Below, piece after piece: positions 1,387 through 41,590 of a DNA stretch of 64,000 nt. The first letter of the stretch is position 1. Each line of letters opens with the position of its first letter. The notes under the pieces were generated by a model. The model was not told where the DNA came from, ran no database searches, and was given only the letters and a program-made list of their open reading frames with translations. Source of the DNA: Actinomycetes bacterium (GTDB taxonomy: Bacteria > Actinomycetota > Acidimicrobiia > Acidimicrobiales > JAMCPL01); assembly GCA_021841005.1 (NCBI GenBank), contig JAKBVZ010000013.1:9364-73363 (forward strand), written 5' to 3'. The position numbers were made by a program, and so were the translations under genes.

Positions 1387-1406
1387 GATCAATCAGAACA
1401 GCACTC

Positions 1407-3029
1407 ATGGCAAATACTTCACACATACTGAGCATCACTCATACATCGCAAGGTGCCATACTGGCACGTAAGTTACCGTACCCGCTCGTAGAGGGCAAGC
1501 CTTCATCTCTGATCAGGGAACATTGGCACGACTGCGATGCCTTGGTGGTGTTTCTTGCACTTGGGGCGGTAGTGCGTCTCATATCACCGCTCATATCGAA
1601 CAAGCACGACGATCCGGCAGTGGTTTGCGTCAACAGCGATGGGCGATGGGTCATCCCAGTAACCGGAGGCCATTCGCGCAACGCCAACCAGCTTGCGGTT
1701 GAAATAGCTGATCTGCTGGGAGCTATGCCCGTCATCACCACGGCATCGGATGCAGAAGCTGCTGCGGCCACTATGCCGCAGCCCGTGCTGGGAGCTATGC
1801 CCGTCATCACCACGGCATCGGAAAGCGGGTATATCGACGCCGATGGTGATGGACACGCCACGGTGGAGCATGGCTTCAAAGAAAAGATTTTTGTTGTCGG
1901 GGTTGGCCTGTCATCGTATTGTACACCGGCAGACCTCATCCAAGTCGTGGAAGGAGTCTTGTCAGAGAGCAACATTTCTCGCCAGGCAATCGAATCGCTT
2001 GCCACCATAGACACGAGAAGGGACCATCCAGCAGTAAGATCATTCAATCTACCGGTACGTTCCTATACCGCTCAACACTTGTCTCAGGTCGACATACCCA
2101 ATCCAAGCCAGGTGGTGCGTGATACAGTAGGCACACCGAGCGTAGCGGAGGCTGCCGCACTGCTGGCCGCGGGGCCAGGTGCAATTCTGGTAGTGGACAA
2201 GATCACCGCAACCACCGCCACCGTGGCAATTGCAAGGCGCATACGTCCGCGTGGATCACTGTCAATCGTCGGCATCGGGCCCGGCAGCTCTCTCCACCGC
2301 ACTCCCGCAGCGACGGCTGCCATAAGAAATGCAGAGATGGTGATTGGATACGGCGCATATGTGGATATGTGCCTGCCGATACTCGGCCCTCACCAGATCG
2401 TTGAGCGCTTTCCCATAGGAGCCGAAGTTGAAAGGGTGGACCGAGCTGTGCGGGTTGCAGCAGGCGGCATGAAGGTTGTGCTTGTATGTTCTGGAGATCC
2501 CGGAATATACGCTATGGCATCTCCGGTGTTCGAGAAGCTGGATGCTCTATCCGATGACCCATGGATACACGACATGGACATCACCGTTGTGCCGGGTGTC
2601 ACCGCGGCGCAAGCCACAGCGTCTTTGCTCGGTGCTCCGCTCGGACATGATCACGCATACATAAGCCTGTCCGACCTGCTTACTCCGTGGGACACAATAG
2701 AGAATCGCCTGCGCGCTGCTGCATCTTCGGGCATGTCCATCGCCCTTTACAACCCTGCATCATCCAGGCGACGCGCCCAGCTGGAACTAGCCCGGAACAT
2801 ACTCCTGGAGATCCTCCCGCCCGATACACCTGTAGGCGTGGTCGACAACGCCATGAGGCCAGCAGAGCGGCAACAGGTGGTAACCCTGGAAACCCTGGAC
2901 GCAGAGAGCTGCACTATGACCAGTTGCCTCTTGATCGGATCCAAAGATACACGGCTATCCAGTATCTCCACGGGTACGAGCACTAAGTCGGCAGGGATGT
3001 ACACACCGCGTGGATATGTCGCTAGATGA
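1407..3029 (+). CDS. cobJ: CbiG-like domain fused to precorrin-3B C17-methyltransferase (CobJ/CbiH)
   Basis: 540-aa ORF. The C-terminal half has the tetrapyrrole methylase pattern SIVGIGPGS...MVIGYGAYVD...LVCSGDPGIYAMAS. The N-terminal half is CbiG-like. Carries an in-frame 72-bp duplication/insert at 1714-1822. Confidence 0.8.
   Translation: MANTSHILSITHTSQGAILARKLPYPLVEGKPSSLIREHWHDCDALVVFLALGAVVRLISPLISNKHDDPAVVCVNSDGRWVIPVTGGHSRNANQLAVEIADLLGAMPVITTASDAEAAAATMPQPVLGAMPVITTASESGYIDADGDGHATVEHGFKEKIFVVGVGLSSYCTPADLIQVVEGVLSESNISRQAIESLATIDTRRDHPAVRSFNLPVRSYTAQHLSQVDIPNPSQVVRDTVGTPSVAEAAALLAAGPGAILVVDKITATTATVAIARRIRPRGSLSIVGIGPGSSLHRTPAATAAIRNAEMVIGYGAYVDMCLPILGPHQIVERFPIGAEVERVDRAVRVAAGGMKVVLVCSGDPGIYAMASPVFEKLDALSDDPWIHDMDITVVPGVTAAQATASLLGAPLGHDHAYISLSDLLTPWDTIENRLRAAASSGMSIALYNPASSRRRAQLELARNILLEILPPDTPVGVVDNAMRPAERQQVVTLETLDAESCTMTSCLLIGSKDTRLSSISTGTSTKSAGMYTPRGYVAR
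1714..1822. repeat. duplication-insert locus A: 37-bp direct repeats (1714-1750, 1786-1822) flanking a 35-bp insert with hairpin core CTGCGGCCACTATGCCGCAG (1762-1781)
   Basis: Read directly from the sequence. Period 72 bp, in frame inside cbiG-cobJ. Confidence 0.9.
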
Positions 3030-3099
3030 GAAGCGGCCTAGTGCATACTTCGGGTTCGACCGGCACATGTACACACCGCGTGGATATGTCGCTAGATGA
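2997..3099. repeat. duplication-insert locus E: perfect 33-bp direct repeats (2997-3029, 3067-3099) flanking a 37-bp unrelated insert
   Basis: ATGTACACACCGCGTGGATATGTCGCTAGATGA occurs twice with a 70-bp period. The left copy holds the last codons and stop of cobJ. Confidence 0.9.
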
Positions 3100-5068: not shown

Positions 5069-5150
5069 TGTATCATACAAATCGAGCGAATATAGGCACC
5101 GCGTTATATCGTAATATGATTATTACTCATTGGCTCCTGGTGCCGACAAC

Positions 5151-7564: not shown

Positions 7565-7577
7565 GGTATCCTCATGG

Positions 7578-7613: not shown

Positions 7614-7822
7614 CAGCTATCGAGTATTATTACCAACGGTAATGCGGTAAAACGACATATAGTGAACGGACATGTGAATCACTTCCGGAGTAATTCGCAT
7701 CAGGTGCATATATTGAGGAGGAAACACCAGAGCATGGACATACCTGGCCAGAGGGCGACCGCCTAGAAAACAATGGTCCGGAAAGCAGGCATACCGGTAT
7801 ACAACACCGTAAGATCGGTACA

Positions 7823-9322
7823 ATGAAGCGCCTGGATATACGACACTTGGACATACATGTGCCACATTTTGGCATACCCCACTTGGGCACTGGTGTCTAC
7901 GTGCGTATTGCCATCGCCATAGTGTTGAGTATTGCGATAGTGGTGATTGCTGCGCGCCTCTCCCGCCCGACTCCTGCACTCATGCTGGCCCCAGCGTACA
8001 CGCTCGGCACGGCATCCCGTTACCCAGCGACACTGGACGTCATCACAGTGCCGCATGATCAACGGCCACGATCAAATATGTCCAAAGAACCCCGCATGGA
8101 TGCTTCACCGCCAGCTACCAGTGCGCCCGCCGGTACCTCTGCAGACCTATCTGCAACGACAACCAACGGCGCACCTTTCAATGCTACGCCACAATCGCCA
8201 CCCACGTTCTTCCCTACCGCCGCAATACAGGGGCTGCCCTGGCCGCAAAGCGGCGGAGCGGCAATCGGCATACCTGGGCCCAATGTCATCATGAGCCATG
8301 GACAGCTCGGGTCTGTGCCCATCGCCAGTCTCACGAAGATGATGACCGCATACGTCATCCTCCAGGATCATCCACTTGCTCCGGGCCAGAGCGGTCCAAC
8401 GATCAGGATTGACAGTACGGACGTAGATATCACATATAACGACGAATTGAACGACGAGACCATGGTGCCGGTTGCCCGTGGCGAGCTGCTCACCGAGAAG
8501 CAGGCACTGGAGGGCTTACTGGTACACTCGGCATGCAACCTCGCCTATGCACTGGCAAGATGGGACAGCGGCAGTGTGAACGTATTCGTCGCCAAGATGA
8601 ACACCACCGCTAGGGAGCTGGGACTTGACTCGACCAGATATGCGGGACCGGCGGGGTTCTCCCCGGCATCGGTCAGCACTCCTGCTGACTTGATAAAGCT
8701 GGCCACCGTGGCGATGTCCATACCGGCTTTCGCTGAGATTGTCGACCATCCCACTGTCGATCTGCCGGTTGCCGGAACTCTTTACAACTACGTAAGTGCG
8801 ATAGGCCAGAACGGGGTCATCGGCATCAAATCTGGGTTCAATTACCAGTCCCAAGGATGCGTGGTTCTTGCAGCGACGCGTTATGTGGACGGTCGGCCGG
8901 TACTGCTCATAGCGGCGGTTACCGGTCAGGGCGGGATGGATCCTCTCGGTAGCGCCCAGGCTGACGCGCTCGGGTTGATCGACTCACTTCCAGCCAGGCT
9001 GCATCGCCAGAGGGTGATATCAAAGGGCCAGACTTTCATGCACGCTGTTCTGATGGCACCGTGGCGATCCCACGGCCAGGCACGCTACGACGTTATGGCA
9101 GGAGAGTCCATCAGCATACTCGAGTGGCCAGGAGCCTCACCGGCAATATCCGTTCACTTCGTAAAGAGATCCTATGCGTGCAGGACGACCAGAATAGATG
9201 CGGATACTGGAACCATAATGGTCAGGATAGGTGCATTGACCCGAAGCGTACCTCTGGTACTTCGCCGGACACCTCACATGCCGCAGTGCCCCTCACTGCT
9301 CTGGCGACTGATCCACGCCTGA
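7823..9322 (+). CDS. D-alanyl-D-alanine carboxypeptidase (serine-type, PBP5/S11-like) with N-terminal membrane anchor
   Basis: SxxK motif in ASLTKMMT, SxN in HSACN, KxG in IKSGF, plus a hydrophobic N-terminal segment. Start uncertain. Confidence 0.75.
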   Translation: MKRLDIRHLDIHVPHFGIPHLGTGVYVRIAIAIVLSIAIVVIAARLSRPTPALMLAPAYTLGTASRYPATLDVITVPHDQRPRSNMSKEPRMDASPPATSAPAGTSADLSATTTNGAPFNATPQSPPTFFPTAAIQGLPWPQSGGAAIGIPGPNVIMSHGQLGSVPIASLTKMMTAYVILQDHPLAPGQSGPTIRIDSTDVDITYNDELNDETMVPVARGELLTEKQALEGLLVHSACNLAYALARWDSGSVNVFVAKMNTTARELGLDSTRYAGPAGFSPASVSTPADLIKLATVAMSIPAFAEIVDHPTVDLPVAGTLYNYVSAIGQNGVIGIKSGFNYQSQGCVVLAATRYVDGRPVLLIAAVTGQGGMDPLGSAQADALGLIDSLPARLHRQRVISKGQTFMHAVLMAPWRSHGQARYDVMAGESISILEWPGASPAISVHFVKRSYACRTTRIDADTGTIMVRIGALTRSVPLVLRRTPHMPQCPSLLWRLIHA

Positions 9323-9413
9323 CCTGCTCCCCACTCTGAAATGCACCCCATTTGTTGGACAACCTGAGGGCATTGCTAAGCCCCCTGTCCAGATATTGGG
9401 ATCCCCTTCGCTC

Positions 9414-12296: not shown

Positions 12297-12381
12297 TATT
12301 GATCCTGTAACCGACAGTGCAATCCATTTACCTCACAGTTTACGCCGGAAGGCTACAAATGTGTTGGATGCTCAGCCATCC

Positions 12382-12413
12382 ATGATCACTCACATGATCA
12401 CTCACATGATCAC
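12382..12413. repeat. 12-bp tandem repeat ATGATCACTCAC x2.7
   Basis: Read directly. Overlaps the rnj stop codon. Confidence 0.9.
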
Positions 12414-18357: not shown

Positions 18358-21300
18358 TTGAAACAGTTGAAAACAGTCTTTGGTACCACCAAGAACGCCA
18401 GGCACGTAAAAGTACGCACGAGGTCGCCATGGTACAGATCGGCAGGGTATGTGGTTGTCGCACTGGTGGCATACATCCCCCAGTTGCTGGCACAGCCCGG
18501 AGTGGTCGTATCTGATACCAAGAGCTACCTTTACCTGGACCCGGGCCGCTTTCTCGCCCAGTCTATGTATATGTGGTACCCCGGCATGGCGGCGGGAACA
18601 GTGACCCACGAGCGCATCGGCTACCTTTTCCCGATGGGTCCATTCTTCCTTGCCACCCGCCTCATGGGCATCCCGTTATGGGTAGCCGAACGCCTATGGA
18701 TGGGCAGTATCTTATTGGCAGCCGGTGCAGGCGTACTCTACATGGCAAACGTGATCGGAATCAATGGGCCCGGACGGATTGTGGCGGCACTGGCCTACAT
18801 GATTTCACCGTACTTCCTCCAGTACGTGGGAAGGGAATCGGTCATCACGCTGGCCTGGGCAGGACTCCCTTTCATGATAGCGTATGCTGAAAAATCGCTT
18901 AGGAACGTAGAAGCCAGGCGTGCAGGCAAAGTGAACACCGGCAATGCTAAAGATGGCCCAGCTGTCGCTGGCAGCGCTCCAGCAAGCACCAGCGCTCCAG
19001 CAAGCACCAGCGCTCCAGCAAGCACTAATTCAGGCGTCACGACGAGCGTAAGTGCTCATTCGGGCACTGCCCTTCCCGCATGCACCGGCAACTCCGAGAA
19101 AATGCACCAGGGACACCCCTGGCGGTATCCAGCCCTTTTCGCCATCGTCGTTGCCACCGTGAGCGGGATCAACGCGACGGCGATACTCTACCTGGGTCTG
19201 GCCCCCGTACTGTGGATAATATTTCAGGCAAGGGTCACCAGAGAACATGACTGGAAAACCGCGTGGGGCGCCGTATGGAGAATCGGGCTCCTGACCACAT
19301 GGCTGTCACTATGGTGGGCCGCCGGTTTGCAGGTGGAGGCAGGCTACGGAATCAACGTCCTGAAATACACCGAAACAGTGCCGGCTGTGGCGTCGTCATC
19401 GCTGGCTTCAGAAGTACTTAGAGGGCTTGGATACTGGTACTTCTACGGCGGCGGCAGGCTCGGGCCATGGGTAGTCACCTCGGTAGAGATGACCCAGCAC
19501 ATTTCCACCCTGGCATTCAGCTTTGCCGTTCCCGCACTGGCATTTCTCTCCGCGATCTGGGTGTCATTCAGGTACCGCTCATACTTTGCCTTCCTGGTGG
19601 CATTTGGCATGGTATTCGCAGTTGGAACATACCCATACCTGCACCCCTCCCTGATCGGCGAATTGCTCAAACTCTTCATGACCAGAACGACTGCCGGATT
19701 TGCAATACGCTCCACGGACAGGGCGACACCCATGGTGATATTGGGAACTTCAATCCTACTGGGCCTGGGAGTGACCGCTCTGTGGAAGCACAGGCGAGCC
19801 GCCGGACTGGCGGCGGCAGCACTCTGCGCCGCTGCGATAGCACTTGCCAACCCTGCAGTATGGAATGGTACGACAGTGCCCGATCACTTTACACAGCCTC
19901 ATCCACTGCCGTCCTACGAGTACAAGGTCGCATCCTGGCTCGATACCCATGGAAAGGGAACACGGGTACTGGTCGAGCCAGGAGAGGACTTTGCCGCATA
20001 CCGGTGGGGCGATACCATAGACACCATCTACCCTGGCATATCTACGCGACAGTTCATAGTGCGTGAACAGCTCATCATGGGTTCGCTGCCTACAGCGGAC
20101 ATGATGTACGCCATCGACAGCCCTATCCAGGAAGGAGCCTACAACTGGAAAGCGCTGGCGGGAATGGCCAGGCTGTTTTCCGCCGGCGATCTTCTGGTGC
20201 AGAACAACCTGCAGTACGAACGCTACGGTATGCCACATCCACGCATACTGTGGCAGCATTTCCTGAAACCTATACCCGGCTTAGGAGCTCCTATCGGTTT
20301 CGGGAAGCCCGTTCCAAACAGATCCACCATACCCTGGGTGGACGAGCAGGTATTGAAGTCACCGGCTGACCTTCCCTGGCCATCGCCGGTCGAGGTGCTG
20401 CCGGTCAAGAACCCGCGGCCTATTGTCAGGGGAGAGTCCACCTCCAATGCCCTCATAGTGGATGGTGACGCAAGCGGCATAGCAGATGCTGCAAGCGTGG
20501 GGCTTCTGAATGGTAATCCTGCCGTGCTCTACGCAGGTACCCTGGACGGCCACCCAGGTCAGCTGGCATCCGCCATGAAGCAAGGCGCCGTGCTGGTGGT
20601 AACCGATTCAAATAAGTTGCGTGCCTTCAAGTGGGACCTGCTACATGGAAATGTGGGATACACCGAGACGGCATCCGAACATTACGCAAGCAAGCATCCG
20701 AGCGACGCACCTCTACGCATCTTCGGCAAGCAGCCGGCATCAGCAATGACGACGGCCAGGTTCACCGGAGATGTTTCATCAGTAACTGCATCGTCATACG
20801 GGAACGCGGTGGCCTATAACCCAGAATACCAACCGGCAATGGCCATCGATGGCAACCTGAATACCAGCTGGCAGGTTGGAGCATTTGGGGTTGCCTCAGG
20901 GCAGTGGTGGCAGCTCCATCTGCGCCGTCCCCTCACTGCAGACAAGGTCAATCTGGTACAGCCGTTTGGTAGCCTCACTCGCTACATCACCAAAGTCACT
21001 CTCTTTTTCAGCTCATCCAAGCATCCCAACTTCCCTAATGGCTCCAGCGCACCGGACAAAGGACTGACCGTCGATCTCAACGCAGCTTCCCTCACCCCTC
21101 AAGGCCAGACCATCACCTTTCATAAGAGATCATTTACTACGCTACGAATCCGCATCGATCGGACCAATAGAAGCCAGCTGAAGTCAAAGACGGCCGTGCC
21201 ACCGGTAGGATTCTCCGAAATACGAATACCCGGCGTAACGACACAACGTTACCTGGCCATGCCGAAGGATCTGCTCACCCTGGCCGGTCCTGCGTCAATC

Positions 21301-23346
21301 CACAACCAGCTCGTGGTCATCATGGATCGTCACCGCCTCTCTCCCTACCCGCCGCACAGCGATCCAGAGCACCAGCTCCAACGCATACTATGGTTGCCCG
21401 GATCCCGTAGGTTCGCCATCTCTGGAACTGCCCGAATCAGTACCCTCATACCGGACAATATGATCAACCAGCTCGTAGGAGTACCAGGAACGAATGGGTC
21501 AGGGATCGTGGCGTATTCCAACGGCCGGCTCCCTGGTGACCTCCGCGATACCGCATCCGCAGCGCTGTCCGGCCAGCCCACGGGCAAGACTTCCGTCATG
21601 TGGTCGCCAGGATTCGGTCAGTCGCATCAGATCGGGGATTGGATACAGGTAAACACACCGGCACCGGTGACGCTCAATCATCTGAACATGAGGATAGTTG
21701 CAGATGGCTACCACTCGGTACCGACCTCTATGCGCATTACAAATGGCAGCGGTCAGCAAGTGAATGTAAACCTACCGCCTATTGCCAATCGAAAGGGAAG
21801 GGACTCCGCTACGCTCGTACCGCTCAGCTTTCCCTCTATCAGTGGTAGGCACCTGCGGTTCACCTTCACCGGCGTGCGCTTTGTGTATACCAAGGATTAT
21901 TATTCGTCAGCACCCATAGCAATGCCCCTTGGTATTGCATCCCTTGGGATCCCTGGCGTAACCATGCCTCCCCCACCCAAAGATATCCCGGCAGTCTGCA
22001 GGAAAGGACTCGTGTCGATAAATGGCAATCCTGTTTGGCTGGAAATTAGCGGCTCGAGTTCGACGGCGCTGTCCGGCGGAGGGCTCCAGTTCAAAGGATG
22101 TGGGCCGGATGCTGGCGGCGTAACGCTCAGCGCGGGAAACAACACCATAACTTCAGCTAATGGACACGTCACCGGCTTCAATATCGACAGGCTGGTACTG
22201 GATTCCGCACCTGGCGGCGGGCCGGAGCATCCCACACCGCCCGGGAGTGCACTCAACGCTTCCAGCATGGACAGCGCCGGCACGACCGCGGCCAACTCAC
22301 CTGGATCCGCCGCCCCAGCCGTAAAAGTGCTGTCAAAGACTCCGGTCTCCATGCACCTGGAGGTCAGGAACGCCACGAAGCCATTCTGGCTCGTTCTCGG
22401 TGAGAGTTACAACTTGGGTTGGCAGGCAAGCGTGCAGGGCTCGGGCAATCTACCGCCACCCGAGCTAATGGATGGGTTTGCCAATGGATGGCTTGTCAAT
22501 CCGGCCAAGCTTACCAGTGCCCGCGATGGCGCCTTCTACGTAACCCTGAACTGGCAGCCTCAGAACAACGTCTGGATAGCCCTGTGGCTCTCTGCACTCG
22601 GGTTTGTGCTTTGCTTGATCATCGTAGCTTTTTCCTATGCTAGCCGTAGGAGGCGTAAAACTTACCAGCCACGCTACCTGCGCAGGCACTCGCTGGCAGG
22701 CGATTCCAGCCAAGAAGCATCCCAGAACAGCGCCCCAGTCCTAGGAACCACCATGCCTGGGGAAGCATCCATCATCGGCGCACCTGCAGGCGTTGAAGCC
22801 GTATCGTCCAGCCGGCCGGAGAACGACTCCATAACGGCCCGTACCGCCGTCATACCTGTCCAGACGGTGGTTGGAGGTATCCGCACTCCGAGAGACGGCG
22901 TACCGACCTTGACGTCACCGCTCTCCTGGCAACGCAAATCCATGAGATGGTGGAGCGTACCGGTAGTGGCGGCGATTACGGGACTTCTGGGAGGGGCGGT
23001 CAGTACGCCGGAGGTGGGAGCAGGTCTCTTCCTGGCCGTACTCGCGTGCATGGTCTTTTCCTGGGGACGCACATTCCTCACTCTTACCGCCCTCACCACC
23101 GTGGTGGCAACCGGGACATACGTGGTCTATCGCCAGGCGGTGGAACGTTTCCTACCTGGCGCAGGCTGGGCGCCCCAGTTCGCCACTGCAAACACCCTTA
23201 CCTGGATAGCTGTGGTCTTCCTAGCCGCCGATGCCATGATAATCGCTCTCTTCGGAAAGTCTGACGATCTTAGCCAGGTGGGAGATGAGACAGTGGGAGA
23301 TGAGACAGTGGGAGATGAGACAGTGGGAGATGAGACGATAAGATAG
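18358..23346 (+). CDS. giant polytopic membrane glycosyltransferase, AftD/DUF3367-like, with a discoidin (F5/8 type C)-like domain
   Basis: 1662 aa. N-terminal DTKSYLYLDPGRFL followed by many TM helices. A large extracytoplasmic region contains AIDGNLNTSWQ. C-terminal TM helices. Family assignment is from recalled motif patterns. Confidence 0.65.
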   Translation: MKQLKTVFGTTKNARHVKVRTRSPWYRSAGYVVVALVAYIPQLLAQPGVVVSDTKSYLYLDPGRFLAQSMYMWYPGMAAGTVTHERIGYLFPMGPFFLATRLMGIPLWVAERLWMGSILLAAGAGVLYMANVIGINGPGRIVAALAYMISPYFLQYVGRESVITLAWAGLPFMIAYAEKSLRNVEARRAGKVNTGNAKDGPAVAGSAPASTSAPASTSAPASTNSGVTTSVSAHSGTALPACTGNSEKMHQGHPWRYPALFAIVVATVSGINATAILYLGLAPVLWIIFQARVTREHDWKTAWGAVWRIGLLTTWLSLWWAAGLQVEAGYGINVLKYTETVPAVASSSLASEVLRGLGYWYFYGGGRLGPWVVTSVEMTQHISTLAFSFAVPALAFLSAIWVSFRYRSYFAFLVAFGMVFAVGTYPYLHPSLIGELLKLFMTRTTAGFAIRSTDRATPMVILGTSILLGLGVTALWKHRRAAGLAAAALCAAAIALANPAVWNGTTVPDHFTQPHPLPSYEYKVASWLDTHGKGTRVLVEPGEDFAAYRWGDTIDTIYPGISTRQFIVREQLIMGSLPTADMMYAIDSPIQEGAYNWKALAGMARLFSAGDLLVQNNLQYERYGMPHPRILWQHFLKPIPGLGAPIGFGKPVPNRSTIPWVDEQVLKSPADLPWPSPVEVLPVKNPRPIVRGESTSNALIVDGDASGIADAASVGLLNGNPAVLYAGTLDGHPGQLASAMKQGAVLVVTDSNKLRAFKWDLLHGNVGYTETASEHYASKHPSDAPLRIFGKQPASAMTTARFTGDVSSVTASSYGNAVAYNPEYQPAMAIDGNLNTSWQVGAFGVASGQWWQLHLRRPLTADKVNLVQPFGSLTRYITKVTLFFSSSKHPNFPNGSSAPDKGLTVDLNAASLTPQGQTITFHKRSFTTLRIRIDRTNRSQLKSKTAVPPVGFSEIRIPGVTTQRYLAMPKDLLTLAGPASIHNQLVVIMDRHRLSPYPPHSDPEHQLQRILWLPGSRRFAISGTARISTLIPDNMINQLVGVPGTNGSGIVAYSNGRLPGDLRDTASAALSGQPTGKTSVMWSPGFGQSHQIGDWIQVNTPAPVTLNHLNMRIVADGYHSVPTSMRITNGSGQQVNVNLPPIANRKGRDSATLVPLSFPSISGRHLRFTFTGVRFVYTKDYYSSAPIAMPLGIASLGIPGVTMPPPPKDIPAVCRKGLVSINGNPVWLEISGSSSTALSGGGLQFKGCGPDAGGVTLSAGNNTITSANGHVTGFNIDRLVLDSAPGGGPEHPTPPGSALNASSMDSAGTTAANSPGSAAPAVKVLSKTPVSMHLEVRNATKPFWLVLGESYNLGWQASVQGSGNLPPPELMDGFANGWLVNPAKLTSARDGAFYVTLNWQPQNNVWIALWLSALGFVLCLIIVAFSYASRRRRKTYQPRYLRRHSLAGDSSQEASQNSAPVLGTTMPGEASIIGAPAGVEAVSSSRPENDSITARTAVIPVQTVVGGIRTPRDGVPTLTSPLSWQRKSMRWWSVPVVAAITGLLGGAVSTPEVGAGLFLAVLACMVFSWGRTFLTLTALTTVVATGTYVVYRQAVERFLPGAGWAPQFATANTLTWIAVVFLAADAMIIALFGKSDDLSQVGDETVGDETVGDETVGDETIR
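18973..19026 (+). repeat. 18-bp tandem repeat AGCGCTCCAGCAAGCACC x3 (APASTS x3)
   Basis: Read directly. In frame within the AftD-like ORF. Confidence 0.95.
23278..23337 (+). repeat. 15-bp tandem repeat GTGGGAGATGAGACA x4 (GDETV x4)
   Basis: Read directly. In frame at the extreme C-terminus of the AftD-like ORF. Confidence 0.95.
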
Positions 23347-23350: not shown

Positions 23351-24811
23351 ATGAGCATACTGGTCATTGACGTTGGTACCACTTCCATTCGGGCCGGGCT
23401 CGTAACGCCTGAAGGCGAAGTCAGGCACCTCCAGCAAAAAAGACTTACTTCCTCCATACCTGCGCCAGGCATGCTCGAACTGGATGCGGAGGCCCTTGCG
23501 CGTGACGCCGTAGAACTGGCAATCTCAGTGCTGCAGCGGGCCGGATCGGTGGCAGCCGTTGGCATCACCAACCAGCGCTCCACCACGGTGGTATGGGACC
23601 GTGCAACCGGCAAGCTGGTTGCACCTGCCATTGGATGGCAGGACCTGCGCACGGTATTCAGGTGCGTGGAACTGGCAGGCATGGGTTACCATGTCCCGCC
23701 AAACGCCTCGGCCACAAAGATAGAGGCGATTATGGACTCGGTCGATCCGGAGAGAACCAGGGACCTCTGTTTTGGTACGGTGGATTCCTGGATGGCCCTG
23801 AAACTTTCCGGCGGAGCTGTCCATGTGACTGACCCGAGCAATGCAGCCATGACCGCCCTGCTACGCGATGATGGCACAAGCTGGAACGAAGAGCTCCTGT
23901 CAGTGCTGCGAATACCTGAGCGCTGCCTGCCACAGGTGGTGGACACCTCTGGTGTGGCGGGTATTGCCTCTATCCTGCCAGGTCATCCTCCGGTAACGGC
24001 AATGGTCGGCGATCAACAGGCATCCATGGCTGGGCAGGGCTGCACGCTTGCCGGATCAGCGAAGATCACATTTGGAACCGGAGCAATGCTCGACTGCTGC
24101 ACGGGTGATATGCACCCCCAGTTCTCGTACATGGGCCCTGTGGGCGGCACCATACCGATAATAGCCTGGCAGCGCAATGCCGCACTTACCTGGGGAGTGG
24201 AAGCTCTCATGCTGGCAGCAGGAGCGTCGGTGACCTGGCTCGTCGATGATCTCAGTATAATCGACTCTCCGGAGGAATCCGCCTCCGTAGCTGCATCGTG
24301 TGCCGATACGGAAGACGTATACTTCGTGCCAGCGCTCATGGGTCTGGGTACGCCCGTATGGGACTTCGGAGCCAGGGGAGCGTTCTTCGGCATCACGGGC
24401 GGAACCACTAGGGCTCAGCTGGTCCGGGCTGTCCTGGAAGGTATCGCACATCGTGGCGTGGACCTTATCGATGCGGCCGAGCGGGACACGGGTCTCACGA
24501 TACCTACCGTGAGAGTGGACGGCGGCATGTCCACCAACGAGATATTCGTCCAGATGCTGGCCGATCTGTCCGGACGTCCCGTGGAAGTGTCCCGGGTTAC
24601 GGAGGCCACCACGCTCGGTGCCGGCTTGTTGGCAGGCATGGCTGTAGGTATATGGCGTGACACGGGCGACCTTGCGAAATTGTACCGTCCGGCAAAAGTG
24701 GTGGAACCCAGATACAGTGATGATGAGCGCACCCTGCGGCGTAGTCGCTTCCTGGCTGCTCGCGACAGGGCATGCCGTACGGTACCCGAACTCTCCGATC
24801 TGCATTTCTAG
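23351..24811 (+). CDS. glpK: glycerol kinase (FGGY carbohydrate kinase family)
   Basis: N-terminal ILVIDVGTTSIRAG and GDQQASMAGQGC...KITFGTG, matching the glycerol kinase signature regions. Confidence 0.8.
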   Translation: MSILVIDVGTTSIRAGLVTPEGEVRHLQQKRLTSSIPAPGMLELDAEALARDAVELAISVLQRAGSVAAVGITNQRSTTVVWDRATGKLVAPAIGWQDLRTVFRCVELAGMGYHVPPNASATKIEAIMDSVDPERTRDLCFGTVDSWMALKLSGGAVHVTDPSNAAMTALLRDDGTSWNEELLSVLRIPERCLPQVVDTSGVAGIASILPGHPPVTAMVGDQQASMAGQGCTLAGSAKITFGTGAMLDCCTGDMHPQFSYMGPVGGTIPIIAWQRNAALTWGVEALMLAAGASVTWLVDDLSIIDSPEESASVAASCADTEDVYFVPALMGLGTPVWDFGARGAFFGITGGTTRAQLVRAVLEGIAHRGVDLIDAAERDTGLTIPTVRVDGGMSTNEIFVQMLADLSGRPVEVSRVTEATTLGAGLLAGMAVGIWRDTGDLAKLYRPAKVVEPRYSDDERTLRRSRFLAARDRACRTVPELSDLHF

Positions 24812-24813
24812 TG

Positions 24814-24900
24814 ATCTGTCCCGTAAATAGCGTGACGTTATCCGGCAACTCAGGGGCGTCATCTGGCTGGCGGGAACCCATGGTTATTTGCGGGACAGAC
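24814..24900. terminator. long imperfect inverted repeat between convergent glpK and merR
   Basis: ATCTGTCCCGTAAATA (24814-24829) and TATTTGCGGGACAGAC (24885-24900) are complementary at 14 of 16 positions, with a nested smaller TGACG/CGTCA pairing inside. May act as a bidirectional terminator. Confidence 0.3.
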
Positions 24901-24975
24901 CACTAGCCCCGGCCTCGCCCCGCAAGCCTATGGTTTACATCCATGGGAAGAATGTCAGCCCAGCGCTTCGAGCAC

Positions 24976-25403: not shown

Positions 25404-25493
25404 TCATAGCTTGTCAGGGAAGAGCATGGCATAGAAGAGGAACACGAGCAACGCCACGCTCACAACCAGTCCTATCCATTCGAATGCACTCAC
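25404..25493 (-). CDS. kdpF: K+-transporting ATPase subunit F-like 29-aa peptide
   Basis: Not in the ORF track because it is too short. The reverse strand reads (V/M)SAFEWIGLVVSVALLVFLFYAMLFPDKL, with GAGGAG 9 nt upstream of the GTG start. A single TM helix and the ...LFPDKL ending resemble actinobacterial KdpF (...LLFPEKF). Confidence 0.6.
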   Translation of the reverse strand: MSAFEWIGLVVSVALLVFLFYAMLFPDKL

Positions 25494-25534
25494 AGTCTGC
25501 CACTCCTCACGATCTCAAAAACCCTGGACATGTC

Positions 25535-25641
25535 GATCCCACACCCGACCCGGCTCAAGCCTATCAATACAGTGCACGAGCTGCGGCATAGCGGCCGCAG
25601 CAGACTGATCCCACACCCGACCCGGCTCATAGCCTATCAAT
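25535..25641. repeat. duplication-insert locus D: 34/35-bp direct repeats (25535-25568, 25607-25641) flanking a 38-bp insert with hairpin core CTGCGGCATAGCGGCCGCAG (25581-25600)
   Basis: Read directly. Period 72 bp. The copies differ by 1 substitution and a 1-nt indel (CTCAAGCC vs CTCATAGCC). Confidence 0.9.
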
Positions 25642-25719
25642 GCCCTTGGCATAAGCGACAAACAACCAAAAGATTATACCGATGGCAGCTATCGCAAGTA
25701 TGTAATAGACAGCGTACAT
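25627..25719 (-). CDS. 30-aa hydrophobic peptide immediately downstream of kdpC
   Basis: The reverse strand reads MYAVYYILAIAAIGIIFWLFVAYAKGIDRL, with GAGGAA upstream. Its last codons and stop lie in the right repeat of locus D. No family recognised. Confidence 0.3.
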   Translation of the reverse strand: MYAVYYILAIAAIGIIFWLFVAYAKGIDRL

Positions 25720-25731
25720 TTCCTCAGCCTT

Positions 25732-26452: not shown

Positions 26453-28561
26453 TCAGTGCACCGTTGTAGACACTAGGTGAAGTGCTGTAACCACCATATC
26501 TATGAGCTTTATCCCCACGAAAGGCACGATCAGACCGCCTAGGCCATAGACAAACAAGTTCCGGCGTAACAGTACTGCCGCCGATGACGGACGGTATTTC
26601 ACCCCTTTGAGGGCCAGTGGTATGAGCACGGGGATGATAAGCGCATTGAAGATGATCGCCGAAAGGATGGCGGTCTGGGGCGAGGTGAGACGCATGATGT
26701 TGAGCGCTCCCAGACTGACTGCCTTGTGCCCGGCTATATAGAGTGATACAAACATTGCAGGTATGATGGCAAAATACTTCGCAATGTCATTGGTGACGGA
26801 AAATGTGGTCAACGCACCTCTAGTTATGAGAATCTGCTTACCGACTTCTACGATCTCTATGAGCTTGGTTGGATTGGAATCCAGATCGATCATGTTGCCT
26901 GCCTCACGGGCAGCCATGGTGCCGGTATTCATGGCAACCGCAACATCGGCATTGGCCAGTGCGGGAGCGTCGTTGGTACCATCGCCCACCATGGCCACCA
27001 TATATCCCTCGGCCTTCATCTGCCTCACGTAATCCATCTTCTTCTCGGGAGTGGCCTCGGAGAGGAAGTCGTCCACCCCTACCTCTTTTGCAATCGCTTC
27101 GGCGGTAACCGGGTTGTCCCCTGTGATCATGACCGTCTTGATGCCAGCTTCTCGCAGAGCATTGAGCTTTTCGTGGATCCCCTCCTTCACCACGTCCTTC
27201 AGATGTATCGCACCAAGTATCCTTCTGCCCTCCGAGACCAGTAACGGAGTACCGCCCGATCTCGCTATACGATCTATGGCAAGCCCCAGTGCCGTATCGG
27301 TCTGGCATCCCGTCCAGCTGCACACCGAATCGACTGCACCCTTTCGTATCTCCCTTCCCTTATAATTTACACCGCTCATGCGCGTCTCGGCACTGAACGG
27401 AACAAACTCCACTTCGTTCTCCGGAAGATCCACTTCCCTGAGCCCGTAGCGCTCTTTCGCAAGCACTACAATGGAGCGTCCTTCCGGGGTCTCATCGGCC
27501 AGTGATGACAGTTGCGCGGCCTCAGCCAGGTCACGCTCCGATATGCCCGATGTAGGTATGAACTCGGTTGCCTGGCGATTACCTATGGTCAGCGTTCCAG
27601 TCTTGTCGAGCATGATCACATTGGCATCGCCGGCAGCCTCTACGGCCCTCCCAGACAGCGCAAGGACGTTTCGTTCGAACAGCCTATTCATACCGGAAAT
27701 GCCAATAGCCGAGAGCAGGCCACCTATCGTAGTCGGAGCGAGCGCCACCAGGAGGGCTATGAGCACTGTAATTCCGACCGGGGATTTTGCATATACTGAC
27801 ATGGGCTCCAGCGTGACGGTCACAACCAGGAATATCAGAGTCAGGCCAGCAAGCAGCAACGCCAGCGCTATCTCGTTGGGCGTCTTGTAGCGCTTGGCCG
27901 ACTCTATCAGATCTATCATCTTGTCCAGGAATGACTCACCCCTACCTGCAGTGATTTCTATGCGCAGTTCGTCGGATATGACTTTGGTGCCACCGGTGAC
28001 GGCGCTGCGATCACCACCGGACTCTCGGATTACCGGAGCGGACTCACCGGTGATGGCTGACTCGTCAACTGCTGCAATTCCCTCCTTCACCTCACCATCA
28101 CCGGGAATCACCTCCCCTGCCGAGACGACCACAACGTCGCCCTTTTGGAGGTCAGTCGCTGGAATGTCCTGAATCGACCCATCGGGCATGACCTTACGTG
28201 CCACCGTCTCTGTCCTGGACTGGCGCAGGAACTCGGCATGGGCCGCTCCCCTCCCCTCCGCCATAGCCTCAGCAAACGTTGCAAACAGCACGGTGAGCCA
28301 TAACCAGATGGTGATCTGGCCGACAAAAGCGAGGGATGTGGCATTCCCGTCAACCAGGTAACGCAACGTATCGATAGTGGTAAGAGCTGCCCCTACCTCC
28401 ACTGCAAACATGACCGGATTGTGCATTAGGTCCTTCGGGTTGAGCTTGAGGACAGCCTGCTTGAACCCGTGCACCACAGATTCCCTGGTCCAGAATGACT
28501 CCTGCTTGGGTCGCCGGTCTCCGGCTCCGGTTTCAACCGCTGTAAGCGTGTCGCCACTCAT
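26453..28561 (-). CDS. kdpB: K+-transporting P-type ATPase subunit B
   Basis: DKTGTLT phosphorylation motif, TGDN and [10 protein letters not shown] motifs; 702 aa. Confidence 0.95.
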
Positions 28562-30348
28562 CAGAACAGCCTCCCTGCATGCATGGCCACCTGCTCGGCT
28601 ATGGGTCCGAGCGCAAGGGCCGGAAAGAACACGAGAGCTCCGACAATGACCACCGTCCCAATGAGCAATCCCACAAAGAGTGGAGTATGGGTAGGAAAGG
28701 TACCGGCACTCGCAGGTATTCTCTGCTTGGCCGCCAGAGAGCCGCCAAGAGCGATCAGCGGTATGTACATGGCATAGCGCCCCAGCAGCATGGCTATACC
28801 CACCGTTGCCGCATACCAGGGGGACGCCGCGTTAAGGCCACCAAAAGCCGAACCGTTGTTGCCCACACCCGAGCTGAATGCATAGAGCACCTCTGAGAGG
28901 CCATGCGGACCCGGATTATAGATGCCAGCCAACCCTGGACCTATCACCACCGATATCGCAGCCAGAATGAGTATGACGAAGCTGGGCACCACCATAGCCA
29001 GCACGGACATCTTCACCTCGAACGACTCGATCTTCTTGCCAAGGTACTCCGGCGTACGCCCCACCATGAGGCCTGCAAGAAAGACGGCAAGCACCGCATA
29101 GGCGAGCATCCCAATCATCCCTGCCCCCCAGGACCCAAAGATGACCTCGCCCGTTTTCATGTTGAAAAGCAACACAAGACCCGCCAAGGGCGTGAGCGAG
29201 TCATTTGCCGCAGCCGTAGAGCCCCACGATATGGTCGTGGTGGAGTTCTCGAACAGCGAACTGGATCCTATCCCGAACCTGCTCTCCTTCCCCACCCAAT
29301 TGCTGTGTCCTGCAAGATGCAGTGCATTGATTATCGGATTTCCCGCCGCTTCGAATGCATATATTAATAGCGCACCTGCAACAAAGAGTACCGCCATTGC
29401 CGCAAAGATGGCCCATGCCTGGCGAATGTCCGCCACCATCCTGCCAAAAAGATATATACATCCCGATGGAACTGCAAAACCAAGAATAAGTTGGAACAAG
29501 AGCGATGCCATATTGGGACCGGCGAAGGGTTGGCCAGCATTCATATTGAAAAATCCGCCGCCATTGTTGCCGAGTTGCATGATTGATGTCATTGAGGCTA
29601 CCGGGCCCTGTGCAATGGTCTGATGCACTCCCTGGATGGTGGTGACATGAGTGTAAGCGTGCAGGTTCTGCGGGGAACCAAGGGCTATGAGCACGATGGT
29701 GCCGATGATCGCACCCGGAACGGCGACCCACAGCAGGGTCCTCACAAAATCGCGCCAGAAGTTACCGAGCGTCTTGGTGCTGTGCCTGGAAAATCCCCTG
29801 GCAACAGCCAGAAAGAGGCATATGCCGGTCACTGGGGAAAGGAACTGCTGGACCACGAGCCACGCCTGGCTCAGGTAGCTGAGTGTCGCCTCCCCCGCGT
29901 AAGCCTGCCAGTTGGTATTGGTCGTGAAACTGATTGCCGTATTCAAGCTTACCCAGAACGGGATCTTCGGCATGTGGGCGGGATTGAGCGGCAGCCACTG
30001 CTGGAGCCCGAGAAGTATAAAAAGCACTGCAAACCCGATAAGGTTCACGGCAAGCAATGCAAATGCGTAGGTGGTCCAGCGCATCTCCTGATCGGGATCT
30101 ATGCCGCACACCCTGTATATTCCATGCTCTATAGGCTCTATCACCCGGTCCAGTACGGACTTTATCGCCCCGATCCAGGTATCCAACAGGGGTGTGCGCA
30201 TGGCCTGCCCGGTGCCGCCGGCGGACCTAGCCGATCTGACATCACCTTCCCTGGCGAGCACCAAGAACATGTAGCCACCGACCACTCGTGCGAGGATAGC
30301 CGCTATCCCCATCAGGACAAATATCTGGAGTACGCCCTGCCAGGTCAT
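28561..30348 (-). CDS. kdpA: K+-transporting ATPase subunit A
   Basis: 595-aa polytopic protein with KdpA-type selectivity-filter-like repeats (TNTNWQ, NNGGGF, GNNGSAF). Overlaps the kdpB start by 1 nt. Confidence 0.93.
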
Positions 30349-30430
30349 GACTCTCCAGATCCGCTGCGGCCACTATGCCGCAGCCCGTAAACCATCTGTG
30401 ATACCTCAGGCCAGGTCATAGTCTGCATCC
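30331..30430. repeat. duplication-insert locus B (diverged): repeats around CCAGGTCAT (30340-30362 vs 30411-30430) flanking an insert with hairpin core CTGCGGCCACTATGCCGCAG (30364-30383)
   Basis: Read directly. Period 71 bp. The left copy contains the kdpA start codon; the upstream copy has diverged by indels. Confidence 0.7.
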
Positions 30431-30486
30431 GTCAATCAGTAACATATGCACTGTTATACACGCGTAGCTACCGGAATGGAAGGCTT

Positions 30487-30535
30487 TTAACGCGTTGTTA
30501 GCGCGAATGCCTGGTTTCTTAACGCTTTCTACGCG
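30487..30535. promoter_or_regulatory. two direct repeats TTAACGCGTTGTTAGCGCG / TTAACGCTTTCTACGCG spaced 32 bp, upstream of kdpA
   Basis: Read directly (30487-30505 and 30519-30535). Candidate regulator binding sites. No cognate regulator identified. Confidence 0.25.
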
Positions 30536-30644
30536 TCAGGCTATGGTGATCCGGGGGTCAGCAAAGACACCGGGCTGCGGCATAGTGGCCGCAGCGGACC
30601 AAAGAACGTCAGGCTATGGTGATCCGGGGGTCAGCAAAGACACC
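30534..30644. repeat. duplication-insert locus C: perfect 38-bp direct repeats (30534-30571, 30607-30644) flanking a 35-bp insert with hairpin core CTGCGGCATAGTGGCCGCAG (30575-30594)
   Basis: Read directly. Period 73 bp. The right copy contains the last 11 sense codons and stop of fbaB. The core is the reverse complement of the cores in loci A and B. Confidence 0.92.
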
Positions 30645-31697
30645 CTGGATGGCATGGAGGAGCTTCACTCCTTCATCCATGGGACGCTGGAAGGATTTCC
30701 GCCCTACAATGAGCCCGGTCCCGCCGGCTCGCTTGTTGATGACGGCTGTCCGCACGGCCTGTGCCAGATCAGTGTCCCCCTTTGACTCACCACCAGAATT
30801 GATCAACCCGATACGACCCGAATAGCAGTTGACCACCTGCCAACGGGTAAGGTCCACGGGATGATCCGTGGTAAGGGTATTGTACACAAGAGGATCGGTC
30901 TTGCCGAAGTGCAACGCCGTATAGCCACCGTTCAGCTCAGGCTGTTTCTGTTTTATCAGATCCGCCTCCAAGGTCACACCAATATGGTTGGCCTGTCCGG
31001 TGAGATCGGCTGCGACATGGTAATCCGCCTCCGGCGTCTTGAACGCGTTGTTACGTAGGTAGCACCACAGCACGGTGAACATCCCCAGCCTATGAGCCTC
31101 GGCAAACGCACTTGACACCTCCTGCAACTGCCGCGAGGACTCCTCCGATCCAAAGTATATCGTAGCACCGACACCCACCGCACCCAGGTCTGCGGCCTGG
31201 CGAACCGACGCGAACATGATCTGATCGTACCGATTGGGGTAGACAAGCAGATCATTGTGGTTGAGCTTGACTATGAACGGTATCTTGTGGACATACTTCC
31301 TCGCAGTCATGCCAAGCACTCCTAGGGTGGTTGCGATACCGGAGCAACCCCCTTCCACGGCCAGCTCGCAGAGTTTGAATGGATCGAAATAAGCGGGATT
31401 CTTTGAAAAGCTCGCTGCGGCGGAGTGCTCGATGCCCTGATCCACCGGGAGAATGGACAGGTATCCCGTCCCTCCAAGGTTGCCATGCGAATAGAGCGTG
31501 CCCAGATTGCGTAGGACGGTTGCGTTACGGTCACTGACCGACATCACCCTGTCCAGGTAATCCGGCCCTGGCAACTCCAGCATATCCTTAGGAATACCCT
31601 TGCAAGTATGGGTCAGCAGGTCCTCGGCATCCGCACCAAGCAGAGCCTCCAAATCCATCGTGCTTGCGATATTCCCCGTACTGGGTACTCCGAACAT
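30609..31697 (-). CDS. fbaB: class I fructose-bisphosphate aldolase (FbaB/DhnA family)
   Basis: Collinear similarity to E. coli FbaB as recalled: [58 protein letters not shown], ending ITIA. Confidence 0.85.
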
Positions 31698-33790: not shown

Positions 33791-34714
33791 GTGATGGACA
33801 TAAAACAGCTACGAGCCCTACTGGCAGTACATGAAAAAGGTTCCTTTTCCAGCGCAGCGGATCTGCTTGGAACAGTTCAATCAAATATCTCAGCACACGT
33901 GACAAAGCTGGAAAACGAGCTTGGCACAGTACTGATTGACAGATCGTCGTCGGGCCTCACCCCAGAAGGCGAAGCGGTTGCCGCCCGTGCGTACAGGATA
34001 CTCGGAGAGATGGAAGCCATATGGGACGACGTAGGAGCGCTGAAAGCAGAACTGTCCGGTACCGTCCGGATCGGAATGATAGGAACCACGGCACGATGGA
34101 TCACGCCAAGGCTGTATGCCACCTTGAAACGGGCTCACCCTGCCATTCGTTTGGTAATACATGATGGAACCAGTACCACCCTCAGCCAGCTCCTGATTAC
34201 AGGCAGGCTGGACTTTGCTGTCATGACGCTTCCAGTGGTCAACAAGGAGCTGACTGCCACCCCTCTCTTCACGGAGGAAATCAACCTCGTGGTACCGCGT
34301 GACACGGATCCGGTTCCCGGCATGGACTCCATCCAGATGGCGGATCTGGCTCACCTTGAACTGCTGCTGCCTGCGCCTGGAACCACATTCCGTAACGAAC
34401 TGGATCAGGCGGCAATGTCCCACGGTGTCAATCTAAAGGCTGCCGCCGAGTTGGACGGCGTACGCCTGATAGCATCGCTCGCCTTCGACGGTAACGGATT
34501 TGCCCTGTTGCCCACCAGCGCGGTCCCATTCCATCTAAAAGATCGTGTCAGGCTGGTAAAGGTGGATGGCATAGCCACTCGTGAAGTCGGGATAGCCCGC
34601 CGCTCACGGAGCATCCCGTCGGCATCGACCAAGGCGGCAATCGCTTCACTGCAAAAAGTGACGAGAACAGCCAAACATGGGCAACCCATGCCTGAAGGTG
34701 TCGAACCCGTGTAG
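33791..34714 (+). CDS. LysR family transcriptional regulator
   Basis: N-terminal HTH MDIKQLRALLAVHEKGSFSSAADLLGTVQSNISAHVTKLE plus a LysR substrate-binding domain. GTG-ATG start. Confidence 0.88.
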   Translation: MMDIKQLRALLAVHEKGSFSSAADLLGTVQSNISAHVTKLENELGTVLIDRSSSGLTPEGEAVAARAYRILGEMEAIWDDVGALKAELSGTVRIGMIGTTARWITPRLYATLKRAHPAIRLVIHDGTSTTLSQLLITGRLDFAVMTLPVVNKELTATPLFTEEINLVVPRDTDPVPGMDSIQMADLAHLELLLPAPGTTFRNELDQAAMSHGVNLKAAAELDGVRLIASLAFDGNGFALLPTSAVPFHLKDRVRLVKVDGIATREVGIARRSRSIPSASTKAAIASLQKVTRTAKHGQPMPEGVEPV

Positions 34715-34918
34715 ACCGCTGATTCGGCATTACAACACAAATTGTGCTCAAGTATTCACATAGCAAGCAAACCCGTGCCACCTGGGGCTATACTGGAAAT
34801 ACTGGATATGGTTTCCTGGATGGTTCCGAGGGGTAATCATCGGACTATCCCGGATTGCTTACGGAACGGATTGAGGTAATATGGCAATACGAGTGGTCTG
34901 TTGTAGGAAAGCGGCACG

Positions 34919-40464: not shown

Positions 40465-40492
40465 TTGGATACACACCGGGCATGAGTATAAT
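40465..40492 (+). promoter_or_regulatory. sigma-70-like promoter TTGGAT-16 nt-TATAAT
   Basis: Read directly. The -10 region is duplicated 58 bp downstream (40546-40551) within a 26-28 bp direct repeat (40472-40497 and 40530-40557). Confidence 0.4.
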
Positions 40493-40613
40493 TGCACTCC
40501 CTCGACACCGCCTGCGCCGGTAATAAGCGCACACCGGGCATGAGTATAATGGCGCACATGCATAGATGGGAATTACACATGTCCAGCCAACCGCCACTTG
40601 AAAGGCATCACGT

Positions 40614-41366: not shown

Positions 41367-41463
41367 ACAGGATATCGTGACAAGCTTCATGCCGCGTCGT
41401 ACAATCCGACCACCGGTACGCCACTCCAAGAACAGCTCGTCCTGACGTCCTGACGTCCTGAGG

Positions 41464-41572
41464 CTTATGATACCTCTGGAAACACACACTGGCACTCTCA
41501 CTCTCTGACTGGCACTGTGGCTTCAGAGATGGAAGTAGAACTTATGACACCTCTGGAAACACACACCGGCAC
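41464..41572. repeat. 32-bp direct repeats (41464-41495, 41541-41572; 2 mismatches) flanking a 45-bp spacer
   Basis: CTTATGA(T/C)ACCTCTGGAAACACACAC(T/C)GGCAC occurs twice with a 77-bp period. Lies between the two convergent hypothetical genes. Confidence 0.85.
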
Positions 41573-41590
41573 GGCGGGCCTAGAGCGTGG

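Follow-up and report, generated by a model that had tools for sequence, protein, structure and literature searches.

A short hairpin insert and its long flanking duplications at the 3' end of an actinobacterial aldolase gene

Why does the 3' end of an intact aldolase gene exist twice, with a hairpin between the two copies? This arrangement is found in a stretch of 64,000 nt from an Acidimicrobiales genome (assembly GCA_021841005.1, contig JAKBVZ010000013.1, positions 9,364 to 73,363), which is called the window in the following. The locus, designated C, lies between a class I fructose-bisphosphate aldolase gene, here named fbaB, and kdpA. A repeat search returns the direct repeat CGTCAGGCTATGGTGATCCGGGGGTCAGCAAAGACACC of 38 bp, whose copies agree at 38/38 positions and start 73 nt apart. 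They are separated by a 35-nt insert, GGGCTGCGGCATAGTGGCCGCAGCGGACCAAAGAA, the core of which forms a hairpin with 8 bp in the stem and 6 nt in the loop (−11 kcal/mol for DNA, z about −3). The copy on the gene side supplies the end of the fbaB reading frame, and the spare copy lies in the spacer towards kdpA. An earlier note on this DNA had described both the perfect duplication and the intact gene end, and our coordinates agree with it (Table 1). We conclude with high confidence that the repeat is a target-site duplication, left when a tiny non-coding DNA that carries the hairpin entered the aldolase gene just within its 3' end.

The hairpin belongs to a family. Its 22-nt core, GCTGCGGCATAGTGGCCGCAGC, matches the window four times at ≤3 mismatches, where 0 matches are expected, and all four copies (loci A to D) are flanked by direct repeats of local sequence with a start-to-start distance of 71–73 nt. 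Scanning the window for repeat–insert–repeat structures yields six, and 0 in each of five shuffles. Two further loci come from a sister species (S2, represented by L001, L010, L014 and L027–L030), which shares 89.4% nucleotide identity over 22 kb with the species of the window (W). Locus E lies inside a methyltransferase gene neighbouring cbiG/cobJ, and locus F, known only from S2, inside an L,D-transpeptidase gene (L001). W and S2 together contain at least six independent insertion sites, and each event adds 71–73 nt. Refined against empty sites, the duplication measures 36–38 bp and the insert 35–36 nt (37+35 at A, 38+35 at C, about 37+35 at D and 36+36 at E; B spans 71 nt and F 72 nt).

All copies share one layout, with a conserved head (C)ACGGG, an invariant 8-bp stem, a 6-nt loop and a tail of ~10 nt that varies by locus. 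The insert of locus C matches the family profile at E = 1e-9. Locus F (L001 3575-3700) is array-like: a repeat, the hairpin, a second repeat and a second half-hairpin (13/13 nt in register) are followed by a possible third, decayed repeat. The hairpin at F encodes AAATMPQP in the reading frame also used at locus A. The family is dispersed in both orientations. Loci B and C, which are complementary at 28/28 positions and lie 183 nt apart, are indeed oppositely oriented, and the core at C is the reverse complement of the cores at A and B, as the earlier note had stated. Its claim that the hairpin sits at the same offset as in locus A is nearly, not exactly, right: the head side measures 2 nt at C and 3 nt at A, the tail side 11 nt and 10 nt.

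Among the intergenic copies, substitutions are found at 4/18 loop positions and at 0/48 stem positions (p = 0.004). The stem is invariant and we could detect neither compensatory base changes nor RNA-type covariation in it; to judge from these alignments, it is as sequence that the stem is conserved. No known RNA family was found for the hairpin in Rfam and no terminator-like T tract at it. A profile search of 137 kb from these lineages added no diverged copies to those already known. At 60154-60184, CGGCATGGCGGCCG weakly resembles the hairpin (profile E = 0.21). It shows no repeat pattern of ~72 nt and is either a decayed copy or a chance match.

Table 1. Positions of the repeat–insert–repeat loci and of the two genes at locus C (window numbering unless a contig is named)
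Feature	Coordinates	Strand	Remarks
Core matches at loci A, D, B, C, respectively	1761-1782; 25580-25601; 30363-30384; 30574-30595	-; +; -; +	
Locus C spare repeat copy	30534..30571		in the 260-nt fbaB–kdpA spacer
Locus C insert	30572..30606	+	head GG; stem-loop 30574-30595 = GCTGCGGC-ATAGTG-GCCGCAGC; tail GGACCAAAGAA
Locus C gene-side repeat copy	30607..30644		2 nt past stop, stop codon (30609-30611) and last 11 codons (30612-30644)
Class I fructose-bisphosphate aldolase (fbaB), intact	30609..31697	-	open reading frame; PF01791; names of homologues
kdpA	28561-30348	-	across the 260-nt spacer from fbaB
Locus A left duplication	1714..1750		inside cbiG/cobJ fusion gene (1407-3029, +); 37/37 identical, spacing 72
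Locus A hairpin insert	1751..1785	-	35 nt, in frame; insert plus one repeat copy = 24 extra codons
Locus A right duplication	1786..1822		37/37 identical to left copy
Locus B functional duplication copy	30323..30348		first 26 nt of kdpA including ATG
Locus B hairpin insert	30349..30393	-	directly upstream of kdpA start codon; stem-loop 30363-30384
Locus B spare repeat copy (kdpA 5' end), decayed	30394..30419		73% identical to 30323-30348; spacing 71
Locus D left duplication	25535..25568		3' end of 29-codon open reading frame downstream of kdpC; spacing 72/73, one indel
Locus D hairpin insert	25569..25606	+	loop ATAGCG
Locus D right duplication	25607..25641		spacing 72/73 with one indel
Non-hairpin event, window	2997..3099		33-bp perfect repeat over the cbiG/cobJ stop and the 10 codons before it, 37-nt insert, spacing 70; absent from S2
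Nested S2 event within locus C	L014 1485-1604 = L029 about 9669-9790		downstream of fbaB; perfect 36-bp duplication, unrelated 44-nt insert
Non-hairpin event, S2	L029 5469-5580		downstream of LysR-type regulator gene; perfect 36-bp repeat, 40-nt insert; window empty at 34690-34730
Looser event, window	41463-41573		34 + 43; insert has its own 6-bp-stem hairpin and resembles the inverted target
Looser event, window	40471-40555		27 + 31; repeat includes a TATAAT-like box

Empty sites in relatives establish that these structures are real insertions with duplication of the target, as had been proposed. The cbiG/cobJ orthologue of L013 lacks exactly the 72 nt of locus A and keeps a single repeat copy, and the window lacks exactly the 72 nt of locus E. 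Locus B is empty in L015 and L022, locus D in L015 and, cleanly, in S2. For locus C we found no empty site; in the hairpin-free relatives L015 and L022, fbaB does not adjoin kdpA. The presence/absence polymorphism among strains that the earlier note had named as a test is found at locus A. Contig L023 (ERZ27237009) aligns to window positions 1-11470 (11.4 kb) with 0 mismatches; it differs by a clean 72-nt gap at 1714-1785, which leaves one repeat copy, and by 12 nt in a microsatellite. At the protein level, the 516-aa member P0361 of the 90%-identity cbiG/cobJ cluster equals the window protein P0001 minus the 24 residues of locus A. Gene tables give about 16 empty and 8 filled alleles among 24 contigs, of which representative contigs only were inspected. 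Simple tandem duplication by slippage is ruled out by the empty sites without hairpin and by the same core at unrelated loci.

The known range of the family is narrow. Scanning 185,579 species-representative genomes for the exact core gave one true copy (L001, the metagenome-assembled genome (MAG) JAMCPL01 of Actinomycetota). The match in L002 and all four matches in metagenomes lack flanking repeats and are chance matches. No exact core was found in viral contigs, and plasmid and phage collections gave insignificant matches only, with E of 2 or more. In the sequence available from more distant relatives there were no copies, neither in L015/L016 (22 kb, profile search) nor in L013, nor at the kdpA site of L022. 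By the source names of homologues, the lineage looks Acidimicrobiia-like. Loci A, B and C are common to both species; D belongs to W only and E to S2 only, so the element was active both before and after the species split. The representative genome of S2 has a single exact core, and all four copies of W match the core pattern; on this count, the family seems to be decaying in S2 and to be maintained or active in W.

How old is the insertion behind fbaB? The perfect identity of its repeats had been read as the sign of a recent event, and this reading is not supported. S2 carries locus C at the same nucleotide position and with a related tail. Its spare and gene copies differ at 10/38 positions, and the spare copy is split by a nested second insertion. 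The insertion at locus C therefore predates the split of W and S2. Between the two species, identity is 95.6% for the aldolase coding sequence, 93.9% for the adjacent spacer and 73.7% (28/38) for the spare repeat, which is more diverged than the adjacent spacer (Fisher p = 0.0017). A similar pattern is found at locus A, where the repeat copies differ at 4/37 positions in S2 and are identical in W; three positions agree between the copies within each genome and differ between the genomes. The perfect repeats of W are due to later homogenisation or re-insertion, and something recent did happen at A and C. In the simplest history of locus C, insertion well before the split would have been followed by decay of the spare copy, which the gene copy then overwrote in W. 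Alternatively, the unit may have been lost and inserted again at exactly the same site. For annotators it follows that perfect flanking repeats are an unreliable sign of recent insertion here.

The position of loci B and C at gene termini had also suggested that gene boundaries are preferred as targets. Of the six independent loci, A, E and F lie inside open reading frames, where each adds exactly 72 nt, or 24 codons, in frame, and the distribution over all six is one that purifying selection alone would be expected to leave where genes are dense. The intergenic loci B, C and D add 71–73 nt, and each overlaps a gene end that is restored by the duplication. The seeming bias towards gene ends looks like the outcome of survival and not of targeting, since selection would purge disruptive and out-of-frame insertions and, with a duplication of 37 bp, a gene end comes to no harm from an insertion up to 37 nt inside it. 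We could not detect a common motif among the six duplicated targets: in register, their mean pairwise identity is that of the null (p = 0.84). The pair A and C alone gives p = 0.03, uncorrected. The idea that targets resemble the hairpin itself was rejected (p = 0.3–0.9 per locus). The variable tail resembles the last 10–16 nt of its own target duplication, as seen in AGCTTCTGCA and AGCTCCCAGCA at A, CAAAGA at C and CAAG at E. The matched-pair score for tail and target was reached by 0/265 derangements. As the scoring was chosen after the pattern had been seen, this likeness is a lead only, which could mean microhomology or a guide-like choice of target.

The same architecture occurs with other cargo. 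Three inserts of 37–44 nt without the hairpin carry duplications of 33–36 bp, and each is absent from the respective sister species; two looser cases were found in the window (Table 1). The insert at 2997-3099 contains GCGGCCTAGTG, a 10/11 by-eye match to GCGGCATAGTG of the hairpin; its overall similarity to the hairpin is not significant. In the nested S2 event, the duplication covers half the hairpin and the first 15 nt of the spare repeat, and the insert has a TACAAT motif. Two of the non-hairpin inserts resemble their own target (p about 0.02 each), one in direct and one in inverted orientation, and the others do not; the insert at L029 5469-5580 looks like a noisy copy of its target (p = 0.02). 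A foreign origin was not indicated, as exact 22-mers of the non-hairpin inserts were absent from viral contigs. In the hairpin-free relative L013, the cbiG/cobJ orthologue ends in a tandem 15-nt repeat (1949-2009, PRGYA x3), at the gene end that forms the 33-bp repeat of the window.

Which enzyme could place such an insert? The stagger implied by the duplications is so long, and so constant across unrelated targets, that it points to an integrase which measures distance. Taken as a whole, we think it somewhat probable that the hairpin is a mobile insert placed by an integrase of this kind with a ruler of ~37 bp. A short DNA would be joined to the target at staggered breaks, ~37 bp apart on the two strands, and the target would be duplicated as the gaps are filled. 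Selection would then retain harmless events, either 72-nt in-frame additions in tolerant protein regions or rebuilt gene ends as at fbaB. The repeat–hairpin–repeat unit would stay dynamic, with precise loss possible, as the empty allele at A indicates, and at the old insertions A and C the repeat copies may have been made identical again in W by gene conversion or by excision and re-insertion. To our knowledge, spacer integration by Cas1–Cas2, or by a casposase-like Cas1, is the only chemistry that pairs a 30–40-bp duplication with an insert of ~35 nt. The lack of terminal inverted repeats, the spacer-like insert length, the unrelated cargo with a shared duplication length and the array-like locus F suggest an integrase of the spacer type in preference to a transposase. 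Membership of this enzyme in the Cas1 family, which the geometry fits best, is a tentative proposal, possible rather than probable.

Several observations weigh against this proposal. Genes for Cas1, Cas2, a transposase, a recombinase or a reverse transcriptase, and CRISPR arrays, were not found in the 81 kb of genome examined. Pfam scans of the main open reading frames of the window likewise gave no candidate enzyme, only housekeeping genes, a BrxC/D-like pair and a helicase. No reported product of adaptation resembles a single "spacer" that recurs at six or more sites. Insert lengths of 35–44 nt over hairpin and non-hairpin events are looser than the typical Cas1–Cas2 ruler. No target motif common to the loci was found, and re-insertion at the identical nucleotide, as considered for A and C, would need a site specificity that was not detected. 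The resemblance of tail and target is not predicted by simple cut-and-paste of a fixed element. Finally, some of the non-hairpin inserts look locally templated, which hints at a component of repair or template switching. A bolder version would see the hairpin as a self-propagating "selfish spacer", a DNA of ~36 nt that is inserted across the chromosome by a Cas1-family or an undescribed distance-measuring integrase with duplications of CRISPR-repeat length. Its tail would aid the return to, or the choice of, a target, and its units would pass through cycles of loss and re-insertion, which is how the perfect repeats at old sites and the presence/absence alleles would be explained. We state this version as a doubtful one.

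Two alternatives would account for the duplications by other means. The element could be a minimal miniature inverted-repeat transposable element (MITE), moved by a DDE transposase with unusually long duplications, either a relative of IS1202 or a new family acting on sharply bent target DNA. The dispersal of the hairpin in both orientations with a fixed duplication length would fit. So would the IS1202 subgroups, whose duplications of 5-6, 16-17 and 27-28(29) bp rise in steps of about one helical turn (bioRxiv 10.1101/2022.12.17.520857); our own extrapolation puts the next step near 38 bp, close to the 36–38 bp observed. However, terminal inverted repeats are absent: the palindrome is confined to the central 8 bp, and the head (CACGG) bears no relation to the tail (GGATCCCAA). 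The core is invariant and the tail poorly conserved, and unrelated inserts of 37–44 nt carry the same 33–36-bp duplication. Neither a transposase gene nor a longer parent element with hairpin ends was found in 137 kb of these lineages or in the plasmid and phage collections. We consider such a transposase, the chief rival, unlikely. A similarly low probability is given to repair without any dedicated integrase, in which template switching or Ku/LigD-type end joining of breaks with long overhangs would capture an abundant hairpin nucleic acid as filler. Perfect short tandem duplications abound in this genome, some with polymorphism among strains, and the hairpin-free relative L015 also has a repeat–insert–repeat structure. 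Non-hairpin events exist, two of them with the target likeness described above, and the tails of the hairpins resemble the adjacent target end. Against repair, six independent events share a core of 24–28 nt, a duplication of 36–38 bp and an insert of 35–36 nt, whereas switching at microhomologies should scatter the lengths and use local filler. Nor was the core of the hairpin found in any other genome, save as single chance matches without flanking repeats.

The remaining alternatives question the insertion itself. The structure at fbaB might be a functional gene-end cassette, namely a pair like that of diversity-generating retroelements or a regulatory 3' module, since the layout of gene 3' end, hairpin and spare gene-end copy is superficially similar and the stems of the intergenic copies are conserved relative to the loops. 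This is contradicted by the empty sites and the multiple unrelated targets. The same hairpin occurs with other duplications inside genes and at a 5' end, and a regulatory module finds no support in compensatory changes, an Rfam family or a T tract. A diversity-generating retroelement proper was rejected: the repeats have 38 bp and not the ≥100 bp of such systems, the differences in S2 are not adenine-specific (4/10 at adenines of the spare copy), and neither the window nor the vicinity of the locus has a reverse transcriptase. A cassette is therefore very improbable. We give next to no weight to an artefact of metagenome assembly or a chimera. Every sequence used is from metagenome assemblies, yet identical structures come from independent pipelines and samples (JGI 3300033990, several ENA ERZ samples and three NCBI MAGs), and diverged orthologous copies are present in a second species. 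Over the stretches compared, the window is 100% identical to JGI 3300033990 Ga0373184_0000157 and near-identical to several ENA and NCBI MAG contigs.

Several other features of the window were recorded. Downstream of kdpC, 25410-25720 contains a 29-codon membrane open reading frame and then a KdpF-like one of 29 codons (PF09604 in relatives), which places kdpF after kdpC; in E. coli, kdpF is the first gene of the kdp operon. In KdpA of this lineage, the first transmembrane segment is followed by an insertion of ~25-50 residues of low complexity (30150-30260, codons about 33-66), which is absent from other Acidimicrobiia KdpA and of variable length among close relatives (595–627 aa). Upstream of kdpA, 30440-30520 contains paired sequences with the palindrome AACGCGTT (TTAACGCGTTGTTAGCGCG). 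Conservation of the pair in S2, L015 and L022 suggests that it is probably an operator for kdp regulation. A similar 15-mer lies inside fbaB at 31039-31053. Just downstream of an FGGY kinase gene (23351-24811), positions 24809-24906 hold a MITE-like element of 98 bp, which ends in terminal inverted repeats of 22 nt (CTAGTGATCTGTCCCGTAAATA / TATTTGCGGGACAGACCACTAG) and is absent from S2. Perfect short tandem repeats are unusually many (units of 6–36 nt, 100% identical; 4105-4145, 12381-12413, 18972-19025, 23278-23336, 56128-56180, 62257-62336 and others). Strains that are otherwise identical vary in the copy number of those at 4105 (GGATAC) and 12381 (a 12-mer); W and S2 differ in several of the repeats. 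At the edge of the window (60119-63888), two open reading frames with weak similarity to the BREX ATPases BrxC/BrxD precede a DEAD/ResIII helicase; together they may form a small defence island.

Small palindromic mobile elements are common, but we know of none whose target duplication is longer than the element itself, or is longer than the largest transposase footprints of 27–29 bp. The long duplication makes these insertions scarless twice over, as gene ends are rebuilt and the unit is precisely deletable. For cbiG/cobJ, this is seen as reversible 24-codon in-frame variants of a housekeeping protein within a population. If a Cas1-family enzyme were responsible, spacer integration would act as natural transposition outside CRISPR arrays and create repeat–spacer–repeat units de novo, a source of proto-arrays that would bear on the origin of CRISPR arrays from casposon-like integration. 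If another enzyme were responsible, it would be a new kind of integrase with a ruler of ~37 bp.

The comparison with known systems brings out likeness and difference with each of them. Like products of Cas1–Cas2, loci A, C, D and E combine an insert of 35–36 nt with a duplication of 36–38 bp, within the repeat range of about 23–50 bp, in a unit of ~72 nt. Differing cargo with the same duplication length and the resemblance of locus F to a two-unit array also recall Cas1–Cas2 integration. In E. coli, off-target spacer integration by these enzymes is described as making new repeat–spacer–repeat loci (Nivala et al. 2018, cited in PMC7054753 and bioRxiv 10.1101/148544). Unlike in a CRISPR array, each hairpin locus duplicates its own local sequence, in two copies only (three at F), and a search with Tandem Repeats Finder gave no array whose unit is close to 72 nt. 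CRISPR spacers are diverse and foreign, whereas the same hairpin core is found at six independent loci and has no exact match in viral contigs. There is no leader or cas gene in view, and the hairpin inserts in and next to housekeeping genes. Casposons, one of which was reported in the actinobacterium Streptomyces albulus, are several kb long, have terminal inverted repeats of 25–602 nt, encode PolB and Cas1 and make duplications of 1–27 nt with a median of 15 (PMC4046053). Mobility, integration by the Cas1 family, staggered cuts and duplication of the target are the casposon features that the hairpin calls to mind; it differs from them as a non-coding element of 35–36 nt with a 36–38-bp duplication.

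Among transposases, the longest known duplications, 27–29 bp and fixed per subgroup, are those of the IS1202 family, whose elements have 1.5 kb, terminal inverted repeats of 24–26 bp and a transposase gene (bioRxiv 10.1101/2022.12.17.520857; PMC10132070). Terminal repeats are lacking in the hairpin element, whose duplication, fixed at 36–38 bp, is about 10 bp longer than theirs and exceeds that of every described family of DDE transposons. The RAYT-mobilised repetitive extragenic palindromic sequences (REP/REPIN) are GC-rich dispersed palindromes of 20–40 nt, mostly near gene ends and some inside genes, which are tagged with GTAG or CGTC at the stem foot and insert without target duplication (PMC3733652, PMC3686654). 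Unlike these, the hairpin has the head (C)ACGG without GTAG or CGTC at the stem foot, and the 36–38-bp duplication is its hallmark. Rickettsia palindromic elements and other in-frame MITEs have 100–150 bp and at most short duplications. The likeness to Rickettsia palindromic elements lies in selfish palindromic DNA tolerated as in-frame protein additions; the added peptide here, unlike theirs, is mostly a copy of the host protein's own sequence. The literature was searched for long duplications of the target, for palindromes inserted in frame and for spacer integration off target, and no description of such an element was found. By the features that define them, the hairpin element is not a CRISPR array, a terminal-repeat MITE, a REP/REPIN, a casposon or a diversity-generating retroelement. 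Small non-autonomous insertion elements are of a known kind, and there is a real chance that the machinery integrating this one is new.

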